Source: Eledone cirrhosa (taxonomy: Eukaryota). Taken from it: DNA of 64,000 nt. The stretch lies in the NCBI GenBank assembly GCA_964016885.1, contig OZ024740.1, positions 219,666,001-219,730,000 of the forward strand, written 5' to 3'. Of this stretch, positions 345 to 53,304 are shown piece after piece. The notes under the pieces were generated by a model. The model searched no databases, was not told where the DNA came from, and saw only the letters and a program-made list of their open reading frames with translations. Position 1 is the first letter of the stretch; every line of letters begins with the position of its first letter. The translations under genes and the position numbers were made by a program.

Positions 345-725
345 CATCATCATCATCACCGTTTTACGTCCGTTCTTCCATGCTAGCATGGGTTAGACGG
401 GTTGTCCTGTTGTGGGCAGTGTCCAGTCGGCTGACCTTGTCTTGCTCATATGGGAACTGATTCTGGCTTGATTTCTACAGCTGGATGCCCTTCTTAACAC
501 CAACCTCATTTACAGTGAGTGCTGGGTGCTTTTTTTGCCGTGGCACCTACACGACCACTTTGCAGTGGAATGATAGGGACCCCAGTCCTATCATCTCATT
601 TCTACAGCTGAGTAAACTGGAGCAATGTGAAATAAAGTGTCTTGCTCAAGGAAATAACACATCACCCGGTCCGAGAATTGAACTCACAACCTTTCGATTG
701 CAAGCCCAATGCTCTAACCACTAAG
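345..725 (-). mobile_element. tRNA-derived SINE (CORE-like + Meta-like body, RTE-derived tail)
   Basis: tRNA-like head (A box tagtggttaga, B box gagttcaattct), ccttgagcaagacacttt segment, ggaagggcatccagctgtagaaa segment and (GAT)n tail. Many near-identical copies in the window. Confidence 0.85.
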
Positions 726-860
726 ATCTCCCAAATGCAGAGTCAGGATCGAACATTATTCAATCGTTCCTTGAGCTAATCGGCAGTGAAACATATGTAA
801 TATGTAATTAAATATTTATATGATGCAATACCGATTTGTTGTTCCCATTTATTATTATTA
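726..860 (+). mobile_element. Truncated copy of extended-stem-II hammerhead element
   Basis: cagagtcagg (738-747), ccttgagct (769-777) and GAAA-CATATG-TA (788-799). The CUGANGA half is lost at the SINE junction. Confidence 0.55.
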
Positions 861-3243: not shown

Positions 3244-3720
3244 CAGAAGGGATATTCAATTTGTTGGTAATTCAACAAATATAAATGTTTATAACTGATT
3301 CAGAGCACTCAACAGGTTTTCTGGGGTATAATATTCAATGGTATTGAATAAATGGAAACTATATTTATAAAACCATATTTATTCTATTATATATATTTCA
3401 AGGGTACCAAAACTTTGGTACGCTATCATCAGATAAAATACGAAGTGTGTTTTATAAATTTTGACATTACCAAGGAAAGTATACCTTAATGGTTCAAGTT
3501 TTCCTTGGATATACATAATATACCTTAACGGTTCAAGTTTTCCCTAAGGAAAACTTGAACCGTTAAGGTATATTTTCCTTGGTTATGTCAAAATTTATAA
3601 AACACACTTCGTATTTTATCTGATGATAGTGTACCAAAGTTTTGGTACCCTTGAAATATATATATAATAGAATAAATATGGTTTTATAAATATAGTTTCC
3701 ATTTATTTAATATCATTGTG
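3241..3720. mobile_element. Fold-back Penelope-like pseudo-LTR derivative with two hammerhead motifs
   Basis: Arms about 3335-3540 and 3549-3718 are near-perfect reverse complements and homologous to 40141-40320 and 43927-44090. HHR on - at 3380-3440 and on + at 3612-3674. Flanked by (TA)n. Confidence 0.8.
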
Positions 3721-5570: not shown

Positions 5571-5712
5571 TATATATATATATATATAATTGGTGTTGGA
5601 TGCTTAAAGCGTCCGTATGCGGTAGGGCGTTTGAGCACTCGATGCTCTCATAGAGCAGAGTATGATATCACAAAAAAAGGAGAATCAGTGTTGCGACGAA
5701 TGGAATTTATTG

Positions 5713-5808
5713 GACGTATTACAATCGTTACTCTGGCGACCAGCTCGAGGCACGATCAATGTGATGATCGAACCTGACTCTGAAAATTGCAAGGTCCTCA
5801 GATACGTC
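5713..5808 (-). ncRNA. Hammerhead-like motif with extended stem II
   Basis: GACGUAU CUGAGGA [63 nt] GUAA CGAUUG UA AUACGUC, then caauaaa. Perfect 7-bp stem I; one substitution in the GAAA core. Confidence 0.65.
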
Positions 5809-6102
5809 TTAATTCTACATACATATATATATAAGGGCGGTGCCCCAGCATGGCCTCAGCCGGATGCCTATTACAGGTAAAAGAGTATATATATACATAT
5901 ATATATATATACATCCAGCCGTAGAAAACCCGCCAGACAGTCCTATACGAGCAAGACAACCACTCTTGCCTCAAGTGGGAAAACTCCCATCCAAACCCAT
6001 CCAAGCGTGGAATATGGACGTTAAACGATGATGATGATACAAAGTGTTAAAACGATCAAATTTTAGTCTAGAACATTTATTTGCTGACAATTGTTTACAT
6101 AT

Positions 6103-6162
<60 letters not shown>

Positions 6163-6166
<4 letters not shown>

Positions 6167-6355
6167 TGTCTCTACTTTAGGCACAAGGCCAGCAATATTA
6201 CAGTGCATTACTGGTACTTTATTTTATCGACCCCGTAAGGATGAAAGGCAAAGTCAACCTCGGCGGGATTTGAACTCAGATCGTAAAGGGACGTAACTAT
6301 GCTGGAAAGCATGGCGTCCGACCCTCCACTGATACTGCCAATCCACCACCCTTAA
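6163..6355 (-). mobile_element. Nin/Deu-domain SINE
   Basis: ctgagttcaaatcccgccgaggttgactttgcctttcatccttacggggtcgataaaataaagtaccag and an (ATT)n tail. Further copies at 8183-8378, 12230-12415, 12868-13070, 15200-15365, 17193-17376, 46683-46875, 60406-60790. Confidence 0.85.
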
Positions 6356-6360
6356 TAAAG

Positions 6361-6985
6361 ATAATAATAATAATAATGCTTTCTTTATTAACCACAAGGG
6401 TTTACACAAAGTAGACATTAAGGACAGTACAGGACAATACAGGACGGTACAATGGCATTTCTGCGTGTAAAAAAACATAAAACAGAGGATGTAACAAAAA
6501 AAGAACAATGAAAAATTCCCCAATAGGGGGGAGACTTCCGAGGGCCATCGTGGAGAAAGCCCATTAAAAAAAAGCCATGGTGACCCTGACCACCAGGGCA
6601 AGTGCCCTCTCCCAGTTTTCCACCTTTAATTTACAGGCACATACTCAGAGTAGGTCCACTCACTCGGGCCATTCTTGCCTCTCTCACCCATCTTTCAACA
6701 AAAAGCTGGGAAGAGAGCACTTCCCTCTCTACCCTGATTTTCCTTTTCAAATGAAATTTGAAAAAGTTAATCAGGGCATCACCGAAGAGGTAAGTGCTCG
6801 TCTTCAGCCCTTTCAGACGTGTCCACCATACTATCTCTTTCGCCATGGCCACCAGACAGATAAAAACTGCCTGCCCTTCCCGGCTAAAGGAAGAGGGCGG
6901 GGCAATCCTCACGATGGGCTCAGCTGATAGCCCGATCCGTTCTACACGCGACAGCAGGTGTTCGACATAAACCCACAAGTCAGCA
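6361..6985 (-). mobile_element. L1/Tx1-clade LINE 3' fragment
   Basis: ORF 6631-6978 (AMAKEIVWWTR...INFFKFHLKRKIRVE...FVERW) resembles a Tx1/L1 ORF2 C-terminus. 3'UTR ends in aataaa plus (TTA)n. Confidence 0.6.
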
Positions 6986-7020
6986 ATGCTCAGGTTAAGC
7001 CTTCATTACGTTTATTGATT

Positions 7021-7105
7021 GGTGACGTGCGTTTCACAATTGATCAGCTCAAGGTTTGATCTGTATCGATCTGGCCTGACTCTGAAATCAAAAGCTCGTC
7101 GGACC
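7021..7105 (-). ncRNA. Hammerhead-like motif with extended stem II
   Basis: GGU CCGACGA [60 nt containing cagagucagg...ccuugagcug] GAAA CGCACG UC ACC, then aauaaa. GUC cleavage triplet; one substitution in CUGA. Confidence 0.6.
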
Positions 7106-7201
7106 TCTGTTGTAGTAATGACAGCTCTACACCTCGCTACTGACGAATCTAAACATTGAGTGCTCACCTGGGTGAACCTACAGCAACTTCACGTTACACT
7201 A

Positions 7202-7274
<73 letters not shown>

Positions 7275-21184: not shown

Positions 21185-21578
21185 GAGGCACATGGCTTAG
21201 TGGTTAGAGCATTGGCCTTGCAATCAAAAGGTTGTGAGTTCAATTCTCAAACCGGGTGATGTGTTGTTTCCTTGAGCAAAACACTTTATTTCACATTGCT
21301 CCAGTTTACTCAGCTGTAGAAATGAGATGATAGGGACTGGGGTCCATATCATTCCACTGCAAAGTGGGTGGTCGTGGAGGTGCCACGGCAAAACAGCACC
21401 CAGCCCACACTGTAAAGTGGACGTGTAGGCACCATGGAAAAAAAAGCACCCAGCACTTACTGTAAATGAGGTTGGTGTTAGGAAGGGCATCCAGCTGTAG
21501 AAATCAAGCCAGAATCAGTTCCCATCCCACCCTTGCAAGCAGGGAAAAGTGGACGTAAAATGATGATGATGATGATGA
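21185..21578 (+). mobile_element. SINE (main family), full length
   Basis: gaggcacatggcttagtggttagagc head through to gtggacgtaaaa(tga)n. Confidence 0.9.
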
Positions 21579-29040: not shown

Positions 29041-30028
29041 AAAATATCTAGTAAAATCAGAAACAGAAATTAATGATTTCTTTATATAAAATAATACAAA
29101 TATGATCAAAATGAAGAACTGTCTTATATATATATCAACATCATCCTCATTATTGTTTTTACATCTACTTTTTCTATGGTGACATGAGGTGGATGTGAGT
29201 TATTGTATTCTACATCCAGAAGCTCATCTTCATGCTAAACCTTACTTATTTATAAATAAAGTACTTTTTTTCCACTGGTCTTCACAGTCAAACACTGAAA
29301 TGTTGAACATCTTGCTTATGTGGGATGTAAACAAACATCCCCACTGTCCATGCAGTCACAATGTGAAGACACTTGCTTAAGGTGCTATACAGTAGGCTCA
29401 AAACCTGAAGCTTCCATTGAGGATAATAATGACAGCTGTATAAAAAGGTGCAAGGCGATCAAAGTTGATGGAAGCTACAGAGTAGGTAGACCCAGGAAAA
29501 CCTGGGACGAGGTGATAAAAGCTGACCTTGTGCAACTGAACCTTTCAAAGACAATAATACAGGATCAAGATCTTTGGTGACACTAAATCATGACACTAAA
29601 TTCTAACTGATGTCACAGTTCACTCAGTTGTAGATAAATAGGTACCTGATCTTCTGCCTGCTGTGAGTATCCAGGTTTTTAGAATATGTACACCATATCC
29701 TTAAATGTGACTAAAAGGGTTGGTGTAAGTAAGGGCTTCCAGCTATAAAACATTGTCTTAAAATACCTGTCCAATTTATGCCAGCATAGAAAAGTGGGCA
29801 TAAAAAAAAACCATGATGACGATGATGATTTTAACTGTTTAACCCATGCTAGCGTGGAAGATGGACGTTAAACGATGATGATGATGATGATGATGATGAT
29901 TAGGTGATTCAGTAGATTTATGGTTTACTGAGGAACGTACCAATATTAGCAGTCTATGCTATAACAGACTGTATATATTAAGAAGAACAAAACAAGGTTT
30001 CACATCGAGGTTTTTATTGATTAGGCTC

Positions 30029-30113
30029 AGTTACGAATGTTTCACAGATGGATGGCTTAAGATCCATATTAGTGTTAGAGACCAGACTCCCGCCTCAATC
30101 TCCTCATCAGACT
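30029..30113 (-). ncRNA. Hammerhead-like motif with extended stem II
   Basis: AGU CUGAUGA [60 nt, ggagau...aucugu] GAAA CAUUCG UA ACU, then aauaaa. Intact core. Confidence 0.6.
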
Positions 30114-30222
30114 TGTTAATCAAGCCAAACTAGAATCTCATCATTTTGTTCTTTTTATTATACACACACACACACACACATATATATATGTATATATATA
30201 TGTATATATATATATATATAAA

Positions 30223-37326: not shown

Positions 37327-37379
37327 ATAAAAGTAAATAGAATCAAAGTACTGTTGCAGCATATATAAAAATGTTATTG

Positions 37380-37469
37380 GCATATTACAATCATTTCAAT
37401 ATTGATCAGCTCAGGGTAGATTCATAATAACCAGGGCCCATCTCTTTCTCAACAACTTGTCAGATTTGC
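37380..37469 (-). ncRNA. Hammerhead-like motif with extended stem II (decayed)
   Basis: GCAAAU CUGACAA [59 nt containing cugagcugaucaa] GAAA UGAUUG UA AUAUGC. Confidence 0.5.
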
Positions 37470-38354
37470 AGGTTTATAAGTACAAAGATACATTCAAACT
37501 GTGTGTGTGTGTATATATATATAATATAGGAATGAAAAATGGCGTGCTGTGTTGTTGCAGAGAGGGAGTGAGTGAAAGTGTGAGGAAGAGGCTAGCCGAG
37601 AGAGGGTGACTAGCAGAGGGGGAGAATGAAAGTAAGAGGGAGAATGAGTGAGAAGGGGGAGAGAGAAAGAGGATAGAAGTAAGGGAAGAGAAAAAGACAG
37701 GTCACAGCAAAGGGGAAAGCATATAGGAATGAAAAATGGCATGCTGTGTTGTTGCGAATGTGATACATATGAAGTAAAAATTAGAAAGAGAAGCCTGGAC
37801 TATCCATCATCAGTGATCTACTAACCATCATAGGTATTTCTTCACATTAAAGATCAGATACCTCAGAGAGATTTGAACAACTTCTGTCTGTCACAATATA
37901 TGTGGGTGTGTGTTTGTGTGAATGTATGGCGTTCCATTTGCTATGCTGTATGTGACTGTATGTGTATGTTTGTGTAAATGTATGTGTGCTTGTGTGAATG
38001 TATGTCTGAGTGTGTCCATGTTTGCCCATTTATATTTATATACTCATACATATAAATACATGCATATGCACATACACACATGAACACAAATATACACAAA
38101 TGCATCTGTGTGTTGAAAAAAATTCTAGTATATATATACATGTATTATATTACGGGGTTGATAAAATAAAGTCCCAGTAATGCACTGGGTAATTGCTGGC
38201 CTTGTGCCTAAACTAGAAACAATTATATTATATTATATGTCAATATATTATATAGTTGATTAATATTTCTACTTCTCCAAGTTTCAAATGTATATTATTT
38301 CATTTCAAGGTTTTCTTTCTTAGTTCTTTATCTGTGACACTCTCCTTGTCATTA

Positions 38355-40183: not shown

Positions 40184-40249
40184 TATTTTATTATACATAT
40201 TTCAAGGGCCACCAAGGCAAATTATGGTGTGCTTTCATCAGATAAAATA
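40184..40249 (-). ncRNA. Minimal hammerhead ribozyme in the Penelope 3' pLTR
   Basis: UAUUUUAU CUGAUGA aagcacacca..ugguggcccuu GAAA UAUGUA UA AUAAAAUA. Same strand as the PLE ORF. Confidence 0.8.
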
Positions 40250-46276: not shown

Positions 46277-46612
46277 GGAGGCACATGGCTTAGTGGTTAG
46301 AGCATTGGCCTTGCAATCGAAAGGTTGTGAGTTCAATTCTCAGACCGGGTGATGTGTTGTTTCCTTGAGCAAGACACTTTATTTCACGTTGCTCCAGTTT
46401 ACTCAGCTGTAGAAATGAGATGATAGGAACTAGGGTCCATATCATTCCACTGCAAAGTGGTCGTGGAGGTGCCATGGCAAAAAAAGCACCCAGCACTCAC
46501 TGTAAATGAGGTTGGTGTTAGGAAGGGCATCCAGCTGTAGAAATCAAGCCAGAATCAGTTCCCGTCCCACCCTTGCAAGCAGGGAAAAGTGGACGTAAAA
46601 TGAAAAATGAAA
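46277..46612 (+). mobile_element. SINE (main family)
   Basis: Full head-to-tail copy. Confidence 0.9.
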
Positions 46613-51545: not shown

Positions 51546-51949
51546 TAATATATATAGATATATATATATACACACATACATATATATTTGAAGAGATTAT
51601 AATTTAAGTTTAAGTGCCGAATCTCTGCTGTCACTCTTTCATGGGATCTTCAGAAAGTGAGTTTAAAATCTGTGATGCACATATAAACATATCTGTGCTT
51701 AAACTTATAATCTTTCCAAATAAATAAACATTTGCTCTATGGTTCTATATGTGTGTAATAAGACTTTATGTAATTCTATCTCTGTTTTTGTCTTTTTTAA
51801 TATTGAACTATATATATATAGTGTAGGTGATTCAGTGAATTACTCGTGATGGTACCAAAATAAGCACTCTATGCACAGGCAGAGTGAATATATTAAGGAA
51901 AACAATGAACTTTCGTTCATATGTCGGTAGATTTTTACTGTGTATCGAT

Positions 51950-52026
51950 CTGTTAAGCATGTTTCGCTAAAGGTCACCCAGAGATATTAAAAACCCAATT
52001 GCATTATTAATTTGCTCTTCAGACTG
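51950..52026 (-). ncRNA. Hammerhead-like motif with extended stem II (decayed)
   Basis: CAGU CUGAAGA gc[50 nt total]gc GAAA CAUGCU UA ACAG. The host segment shares the end sequence taggtgattcag with the 29900-30150 segment. Confidence 0.45.
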
Positions 52027-52892
52027 GTGATTCAACAAAATATGTATAATCTTTATTATGGCCAAGTGATGAATCTTGCTACTCTGGAGCTTCACATGTG
52101 TATTGACAGGATCATGAATTAAAAGTCAGTCTTGTCAAATGATCTTGTGAGTAAACAGGTGAAACTCCAGAGTAAGAAAACACAACACATAGCTATAATA
52201 AATAATTCCATTCATCTCTACTTTAGTATTGAGTACTCATTCTCACATCCATTAACACCACATATATATATATATGTCGTCATCATCATCATTTTTACAT
52301 CCACCTTTCCATGCTTGTATGATTTAGACAGGTCTTTTAAGCACAGCCTCTCTCCAATCGTCGTGTAAGCTTCAGTGGTTGGAAATCCTCTCTCACCACC
52401 TTCACCCAACTCTTCTTTGGTCTTCCTCAACTGTGGCATCATCCTACTGGGATTTCCTAGTATACCTTAAATTAGTATATAATTGCTCCAAATTCTTTAT
52501 TTCTTGAGCTGCTCACACTGTGACTGGTATTTCACCCCTCTTTCTAGCGGAAATGACATCAGTCTTGTTTGTATCTGCCGCCACAGGTTAAACGTTATTA
52601 CACTCTTGGATCCTGGCAGATACAGATAAGTATTGTACTCTATACTCTATGGGAATTTTGTTTAAAGACGTACATTCCTCTGATTATTGATTCACATCTC
52701 CCATAACTTTACCAAAATCTATAGTTAGTGATCAATGATCCATTGCTTAGATCAATTTTAGTTATGGTTCCAAGAATCATGAAATGGAACCATAAAACAT
52801 TTTCCACATTGAAGTACGAATTTTTTCTAAATATTATGTACTTTATGTGTGTACAAAATACTATATGTTTCGCAAATGATATATATTTGAAT

Positions 52893-52960: not shown

Positions 52961-53304
52961 TATCATCATCATCATCATCATTTTACGTCCGCTTTTCCCT
53001 GCTTGCAAGGGTGGGGCGGGAACTGATTCTGGCTTGATTTCTACAGCTGGATGCCCTTCCTAACACCAACCTCATTTACAGTGAGTGCTGGGTGCTTTTA
53101 TTCCCGTGACGCCTCCATGACCACTTTGCAGTGGTATGATATGGACCCCAGTCCCTATCATCTCATTTCTACAGCTGAGTAAACTGGAGCAATGTGAAAT
53201 AAAGTGTCTTGCTCAAGGAAACAACACATCATCCGGTCTGAGAATTGAACTCACAATCTTTCGATTGCAAGGCCAATGCTCTAACCACTAAGCCATGTGC
53301 CTCC
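52961..53304 (-). mobile_element. SINE (main family)
   Basis: Full copy. Confidence 0.9.

Follow-up and report, generated by a model that had tools for sequence, protein, structure and literature searches.

The window, a 64,000-nt stretch of contig OZ024740.1 (positions 219,666,001 to 219,730,000) from the octopod Eledone cirrhosa, contains six dispersed segments that carry a hammerhead motif with a greatly lengthened stem II (Table 1). The segments lie at the coordinates given in an earlier note on this DNA, and a chance origin is excluded by their many relatives in the genome and by their covariance model scores. Used as queries against the 3.0-Gb assembly, they returned 3847, 785, 1142, 768, 334 and 1015 first-look candidates (40 of each were scored), which are not copy numbers; each of the six families has hundreds to thousands of candidate matches in the genome. 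A covariance model built from the relatives scored the window segments at 85.7, 74.6, 61.4, 56.6, 54.2 and 25.7 bits, the 7021 copy being a member of its training set. The earlier note had regarded the segments as six copies of one family. However, the 20-30 best relatives of each query gave six different majority sequences, indicating that the segments represent six distinct repeat families, which we designate after their window copies.

Table 1. Coordinates of the six segments and their parts in the window
Feature	Position	Strand
F726 3' end, truncated in or just before the core	724..847	+
F726 loop strands	741-744 / 772-775	+
F726 GAAA	788-791	+
F726 ATTAAA	807-812	+
F5713 3' end with tail (short end ~5665, tail end ~5588, then (TA)n)	5588..5818	-
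F5713 hammerhead	5713..5808	-
F5713 core	5795-5801	-
F5713 rod	5732-5794	-
F5713 loop strands	5776-5779 / 5744-5747	-
F5713 GTAA (for GAAA)	5728-5731	-
F7021 3' end, 5'-truncated PLE pLTR with long-armed hammerhead	6994..7121	-
Inverted copy of the F7021 optional tail, abutting the 5' end, then (TA)n; typical PLE inverted partner	7122..7203	+
F7021 hammerhead 5' core CCGACGA	7096..7102	-
F7021 60-nt stem II rod	7036..7095	-
F7021 loop strands (AGUC / UGAG)	7078-7081 / 7048-7051	-
F7021 GAAA, stem III hexamer, UC cleavage doublet (7024-7025) and stem I 3' arm	7021..7035	-
F7021 AAUAAA (7011-7016), lying in extended stem I's internal loop, plus helix Ib 3' strand	7003..7016	-
F7021 helix Ib, paired strands	7003-7009 / 7115-7121	-
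F30029 3' end with tail	29899..30141	-
F30029 core	30104-30110	-
F30029 loop strands (mutated)	30085-30088 / 30056-30059	-
F30029 GAAA	30040-30043	-
F37380 3' end; core (CTGACAA) and loop both decayed	37329..37499	-
F51950 3' end with tail; intact core, 11-nt deletion in rod 3' arm	51821..52040	-

The CUGANGA...GAAA layout that the earlier note attributed to all six copies was found in five of the six family majorities, but every window copy departs from the canonical form. The 726 copy lacks both CUGANGA and the 5' arm of stem I, similarity to its family starting at about position 724. GTAA replaces GAAA in the 5713 copy, the core of the 37380 copy reads CTGACAA, the 30029 copy has TAAG in its loop, and the 51950 copy has lost 11 nt from the 3' arm of the rod while keeping an intact core. 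The CCGACGA core (U4C) of the 7021 copy is the majority form of F7021 (22 of 30). These changes to core, loop and rod bear out the suspicion that several copies may be dead. Among 145 collected copies, which are the best-scoring matches and not a random sample, the core is intact (U4C allowed) in 100 (by family 21/30, 23/25, 11/25, 18/25, 13/20 and 14/20). The AAUAAA-like signal described downstream of the ribozyme reads AATAAA in three of the six window copies, but ATTAAA, AATAAC or AGTAAA in the other three.

Other minimal-hammerhead-like motifs, with stem II regions of 12-42 nt, were also observed in the window, some as inverted pairs, at 3432(-)/3620(+), 35930(-)/35996(+), 1454(-), 46046(-), 45474(+), 36243(+) and 57087(+); all of these are likely other PLE 3' ends.

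The segments as ends of Penelope-like elements

The six segments are almost certainly the 5'-truncated 3' ends of related families with the hallmarks of Penelope-like elements (PLEs). Copies have common 3' ends and staggered 5' ends, forming a truncation ladder that runs into the ORF. The 3' ends cluster at about 42 nt (F7021), 49 nt (F726) and 57-62 nt (F51950) past the cleavage site, and those of F5713 at 51 nt (without the tail) or 131 nt (with the tail); the corresponding value for F37380 is confounded by an internal TA run. A TA or TTA run lay no more than 200 nt from the cleavage site in most of the collected copies (129 of 145), upholding the (TA)n association noted earlier, and an inverted partner was present within 400 nt upstream in 39. 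These patterns of ends, tails and inverted partners agree with the PLE signatures set out in the relevant parts of PMC8557442.

The earlier note had given the size of the host segments as about 200-250 bp. They are not stand-alone elements of that length, as longer copies extend upstream into a 3' UTR of 1-1.9 kb and a PLE ORF. A search for longer copies joined to a PLE ORF, as the note had proposed, yielded ORF pieces upstream for F5713, F7021 and F30029. In six independent longer copies of F5713, the endonuclease (EN) lies 1.7-1.85 kb upstream of the ribozyme, separated from it by a 3' UTR of about 1.8 kb. For F7021, ENs were found 1.0-1.3 kb upstream (loci L178 and L189), and another copy (L198) likewise has an upstream Hydra-type EN piece; for F30029, a Hydra-type EN piece lies 0.85 kb upstream (L093). 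No EN was detected upstream of F726, F37380 and F51950, or of four further lineages described below (F157, F216, F238 and F168), for all of which only short copies were examined.

One locus, L193, contains a near-full pLTR-ORF-pLTR copy of F5713 with two ribozymes about 4.8 kb apart, in the order ribozyme and tail, ORF, 3' UTR, second ribozyme. Its ORF, which is interrupted by frameshifts and stops, contains RWR, DQT and reverse transcriptase (RT) motifs, a CxCX5C linker and, at its C-terminus, an EN of GIY-YIG type that has CxxC and CxH near its end but no CCHH. Motif comparison showed that in L193 and in other F5713 copies the RT is followed by the C-terminal GIY-YIG EN in one reading direction; a Pfam search with six broken ORF fragments gave no significant match. 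The (TA)n preference, tail, inverted partner and pLTR tandem are all present.

These features agree with those given for the Hydra clade of PLEs, including Hydra-1_Obim, in the sections of PMC8557442 that describe it: a C-terminal GIY-YIG-type EN, a linker of the CxCX5C form, (TA)n targets, a 3'-terminal type I hammerhead, an optional tail and an inverted partner, with motifs that resemble RWK and DKT. The ORF fragments also align by eye with the Hydra alignment in the supplement of that paper. There are differences, however. The unit of about 4.8 kb exceeds the Hydra-clade length of generally <3 kb, a figure that is descriptive and not strict; the 3' UTR measures 1-1.9 kb and stem II 59-63 nt; and the RWK and DKT positions of the clade read RWR and DQT in L193, the sole long copy, and RWR and DKI in a related element of the window. 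Among the top matches to the associated RT, the named protein relatives are from Argonauta and Octopus. Of the two alternatives raised in the earlier note, retrozyme-like or pLTR-derived, the pLTR derivation is supported; a single family of short retrozyme-like elements is not, the segments being, most probably, truncated pLTR ends of autonomous Hydra-clade PLEs from at least ten lineages.

An EN tree of 27 fragments from this genome only (28 were tried, one being dropped for too little sequence), built on a short and partly overlapping alignment, joined F5713 and F30029 with support of 92.5/98, and adding F7021 to them was weakly supported (35.6/80). Together with families that have stem II regions of 31 and 36 nt, all three form one clade (98.7/98). 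The ENs of F5713 and F7021 are 39-41% identical. The related element in the window, at 43900-40180 (-), is a near-complete Hydra-type PLE (RT, linker, EN and a 3' UTR of about 1.2 kb) with another repeat inserted; its terminal hammerhead, at 40241, has a stem II of 31 nt, and the EN tree places the element as sister to the rod families.

A Neptune or Naiad host for F7021, suggested by locus L021, was considered and rejected. None of 24 other loci with that RT carries the F7021 ribozyme, and the RT is that of a Neptune-type family which has a 3' UTR of its own, L021 being a chimera. At L021:600-1620 the Neptune-type RT fragment is fused directly to an F7021 3' end, which suggests template switching between PLE clades. 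An abundant Neptune-type PLE family (L107-L130) was also observed, in whose 3' UTR lies a short motif resembling a hammerhead, its 5' core being atypical.

A predicted hammerhead with a rod-shaped stem II

All six family majorities form a predicted type I minimal hammerhead in which stem II is a rod of 59-63 nt. The layout is the same in 6/6 majorities: stem I, CYGANGA, 13-15 nt, AGUY, 3 nt and a 19-22-nt hairpin, followed by 3 nt, YGAG, exactly 12 nt, GAAA, a hexamer, UH and stem I'. The rod is composed of about 9 bp (the 4th pair often mismatched), a 2-3-nt 5' bulge, 3 bp, the AGUY/YGAG internal loop, 3 bp and a variable apex, and it folds in each of the six majorities with z scores of -1.1 to -3.4 against simple shuffles. 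The insert pattern cag-AGUC-agg...ccu-YGAG-cug reported in the earlier note recurred in the family majorities and in an alignment of one sequence per lineage, and the majorities likewise support its description of the motif as a minimal hammerhead of type I, in which stem III is palindromic and stem II contains a conserved, structured insert. The core (C3U4G5A6N7G8A9 / G12A13A14A15.1 / U16.1-H17) is canonical in five of the six majorities. F7021 has U4C, a change described in a part of PMC3088659 as considerably lowering activity in vitro, yet leaving it sufficient in a viroid.

Four further lineages (F157, F216, F238 and F168, from L157, L216, L238 and L168) were found in flanking or sampled DNA, bringing the total to ten. 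Both copies of F168 observed have AAUC in the loop, and at L168:2785-2885 the end of the core is altered as well. U4C cores (CCGA..) recur in several unrelated families, at L168:2785-2885 and L242 and, in the type with a 20-nt stem II, at L202, L205, L224 and L234.

With one sequence per lineage (n = 10), 85.1% of 228 cells were paired and double changes were found in 16 of 23 pairs. Neither the covariation score nor the fraction of paired cells was matched in any of 500 shuffles, and pairing in slid controls was 27-40%; the shuffles take no account of relatedness, and the structure was drawn from the same sequences as were scored. A 21-sequence alignment agreed with this result. Covariation supports the pairing of stems I and II, stem I covariation having been pointed out in the earlier note and being evident here both at the family level and in the one-per-lineage alignment. 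The stem III pairs are invariant and therefore uninformative in this respect. As dimers, the stem III majorities self-pair in five of the six families (-5.8 to -13.3 kcal/mol), and that of F30029 does not (+0.3 kcal/mol). Folding of monomers placed a hammerhead-compatible fold 0.4-8.4 kcal/mol above the minimum free energy in 10/10 lineages.

We compared the parts of the structure between the six families. The two loop strands had identities of 0.92 and 0.87, the 5' core 0.83 and the loop-adjacent helices 0.58-0.82; values were 0.43-0.50 in lower stem II, about 0.5 in stem I and 0.31-0.38 in the apex. Thus, the loop is as conserved between families as the catalytic core, although the F5713 and F7021 ENs are only about 40% identical; its invariance is inflated, because the lineages were partly gathered by the loop motif itself, through the choice made in the earlier note, the pattern search and the covariance model (R1). 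RNAalifold favors UC-GA pairing in the loop, which would reduce it to AG/G plus one bulge; double changes are absent from these pairs.

A feature absent from the earlier note is a second helix (Ib) formed on stem I by its distal flanks, with the AAUAAA-like word in or beside the intervening internal loop. The mean pairing energy of the distal flanks was -7.2 kcal/mol within families versus -4.6 kcal/mol across families (permutation p 0.0007), for flank windows that were picked after the pairings had been inspected. Unlike the stem II loop, this internal loop differs between families in both sequence and size.

The published Hydra hammerheads in File S2 of PMC8557442, an octopus family included, have stems II of 3-7 bp with loops of 3-10 nt in the entries compared, and three 10-letter probes from the 3' side of the loop were absent from the supplement of that paper. 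Two spike-moss PLE-X motifs classed there as non-canonical have loops of about 30 nt and provide some precedent for an enlarged stem II loop. With the minimal type I hammerheads of metazoan PLEs, as characterized in the pertinent parts of PMC4209133, the rod families share the CUGANGA/GAAA core, a palindromic stem III (here a predicted dimer), an open stem I and many divergent families per genome. In contrast, a helix II described there as large has 6-8 bp, compared with a multi-helix rod with an internal loop here, and stem I here has a second helix. The 'HHR_half_core' entries of File S1 of PMC8557442 are also similar: for eight Naiads, including two cephalopod ones, the halves of the core are given as 35-50 nt apart. 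Naiads are a different PLE clade, the File S1 entries propose no structure, and the comparison is by description only; these cases may be long stem II hammerheads of a similar sort.

The rod hammerhead is not the only long design in this genome, which abounds in minimal hammerheads of the PLE type. A descriptor scan of 464 kb returned 54 minimal hammerhead matches with stem II regions of 14-91 nt, a few of them due to chance. Hydra-type ENs precede ribozymes with stem II regions of 11, 12, 31, 36, 59 and 101 nt, and motifs without a linked EN have stem II regions of 39, 79-81 and 91 nt; the AGUC/YGAG loop is absent from all of them. Long stems II have therefore arisen in several forms, the AGUY/YGAG rod being one lineage among them, and because other long designs are common, the expansion of stem II is less singular than the conserved loop. 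Several of these designs occur in three independent loci each: 79-81 nt at L472:907-1027, L190:2100-2219 and L202:9194-9311, and 91 nt at L163:22-151, L437:6761-6891 and L235:44-173. The 59-nt design was observed at L199 and the 101-nt design in a second element at L472.

Within a 1.0-Mb sample of the genome, the covariance model detected six clear copies of the rod together with about three fragments, which extrapolates, from that sample only, to very roughly 20,000 rod copies genome-wide; the window is about 10 times denser. Parts of the elements also occur in tandem arrays, namely a satellite of about 2.9 kb at L092 (G000:C3:170870444-170873300), with 50-bp units from the 5' half of the F30029 hammerhead, and a 52-bp array at G000:C12:21418280-21419560 whose source is the F5713 3' UTR. 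As the earlier note had expected of standard hammerhead descriptors, an Rfam search of the window and eight loci gave mainly microsatellite-driven miRNA matches, with no hammerhead or hairpin family among the matches listed. Weak tRNA-like Rfam matches (28-29 bits) at window positions 21193-21250, 46286-46343 and 53238-53295 are probably the heads of tRNA-derived SINEs. Exact-pattern scans returned 29 metagenome and at least 120 viral-contig loci; these were treated as chance matches because the best model score was 18.4 bits (100 of 149 scored), and the scans would miss U4C families because the patterns required CTGA. A literature search found no description of the long-armed structure, and unnamed consensus entries may exist in Repbase or Dfam.

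Possible role of the stem II loop

For the explanation as a whole, in which the segments are PLE 3' ends with a predicted hammerhead whose rod and conserved AGUY/YGAG loop likely form a binding site for the element's RT-EN, we put the chance at somewhat better than even. For the loop taken by itself, protein docking, most simply of RT-EN, is the role we tentatively assign, at slightly below even confidence. As the loop is invariant, the rod is of constant length and no RNA partner of equal constancy is visible, a protein site fits best.

The pLTR-ORF-pLTR transcript would carry two hammerheads that pair through their palindromic stems III, and intact families probably cleave as dimers. Such cleavage would be slow and probably protein-assisted, as reported for other PLE hammerheads: those of metazoans work weakly and as dimers according to sections of PMC4209133 and PMC6765202, and that of an anole PLE cleaves only in the presence of the protein, its cleavage being dispensable for insertion, in the part of PMC11167929 that deals with it. 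Reverse transcription would start on uncleaved RNA about 42-62 nt (short end) or about 130 nt (tail end) downstream of the cleavage site; since insertions hold 42-130 nt past this site, uncleaved RNA would be the template. For the anole PLE, the same portion of PMC11167929 reports that RT starts internally at two sites bounding the tail and that the template is mainly uncleaved RNA. Once bound, the rod would assist in choosing the template and setting the start points, and premature stops of copying would leave thousands of ends of 120-250 bp. In a tandem, a further product of cleavage would be a 5' end that lacks a cap and lies about 200 nt ahead of the ORF, with the rod staying on the upstream product; self-cleavage alone is reported, in the passages of PMC13725137 on fungal and plant systems, to permit cap-independent translation. 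The loop is no general requirement of the RT, because sister Hydra families transpose with stems II of 11-36 nt that lack AGUY/YGAG.

The loop could instead make a tertiary RNA-RNA contact, a role that we regard as rather unlikely. The long stem II would dock beside the extended stem I and speed cleavage, and docking might also govern whether the AAUAAA, in or next to the internal loop of stem I, is accessible. Both arms are extended, the loop is fixed 12 nt from GAAA in 6/6 majorities, and contacts between stems I and II are a known accelerator of natural hammerheads in the account given in part of PMC3088659. However, the stem I internal loop varies by family in sequence and size while the stem II loop is constant, so that no invariant RNA partner is visible. 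The stem I-stem II contacts of known hammerheads, moreover, lie nearer to the core.

It is improbable that the rod is a largely neutral expansion that need only stay paired, with the constancy of the loop resulting from shared ancestry and ascertainment. The Hydra-type families and unlinked motifs with other stem II lengths, all without the loop, speak for such an expansion, and variation inside the families resembles decay after insertion. Against this, compensated changes occur in the helices on either side, whereas the loop itself varies no more than the catalytic core does, across ENs that are only about 40% identical.

We give very little credence to a second reactive site, in which the loop would resemble loop A of the hairpin ribozyme and be cleaved or ligated between A and GUC, with a substitute for loop B supplied in cis or in trans. 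Such a nested ribozyme within a hammerhead would offer a second way to cut or circularise RNA in tens of thousands of copies, and it is equally doubtful. We take the 4x4 layout and the U+2 and C+3 of the loop to match loop A, and GAAAC lies downstream. G+1, G8 and A9 also match in nine of the ten lineages (F168 lacks G+1), and A10G is a natural active variant that loop A tolerates, as stated in the relevant part of PMC8216279. However, the G11:C-2 pair is inverted (C:G) in 10/10 lineages, the geometry differs, and RNAalifold pairs UC with GA within the loop. Loop B (A22-A24, C25, A38, U41, U42 and helices 3-4) is absent by inspection, its 3' strand not being found by eye, and no hairpin match appears among the Rfam matches listed. 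With G11:C-2 inverted and loop B absent, the structure is not a member of the hairpin ribozyme class. SECIS and kink-turn readings of the loop were also rejected, as the order of motifs in these two elements does not fit and neither is among the Rfam matches listed.

It is most improbable that the short copies form a non-autonomous retrozyme family of their own that is copied by way of small circular RNAs. The majority of collected copies are indeed short, and metazoan non-LTR retrozymes (PMC7229834), which are reported to derive from PLE pLTRs (bioRxiv 10.64898/2026.07.22.740005), share a type I hammerhead, short copies and PLE ancestry. However, retrozymes are non-coding tandem units with fixed ends, whereas the segments here are truncated ends of coding elements, without a fixed 5' end or head-to-tail unit arrays of the whole motif, on a ladder that reaches the ORF and with the inverted partners and tails of PLE insertions.

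From sequence comparison, the predicted rod hammerhead is a real feature backed by covariation, and it seems to be a variant of the PLE hammerhead, carried by Hydra-clade elements of octopods, that has not been described before. PLE hammerheads are reported to cleave poorly in vitro. A separable conserved module, consisting of the loop and two long arms, provides a mutational handle on the role of the 3' structure, with which an RT-EN binding site, a tertiary accelerator and a poly(A) switch could be separated. Hammerheads with a long stem II form a large class that escapes both descriptor and Rfam searches, which bears on claims that some PLE clades lack hammerheads and on counts of ribozymes in cephalopods.
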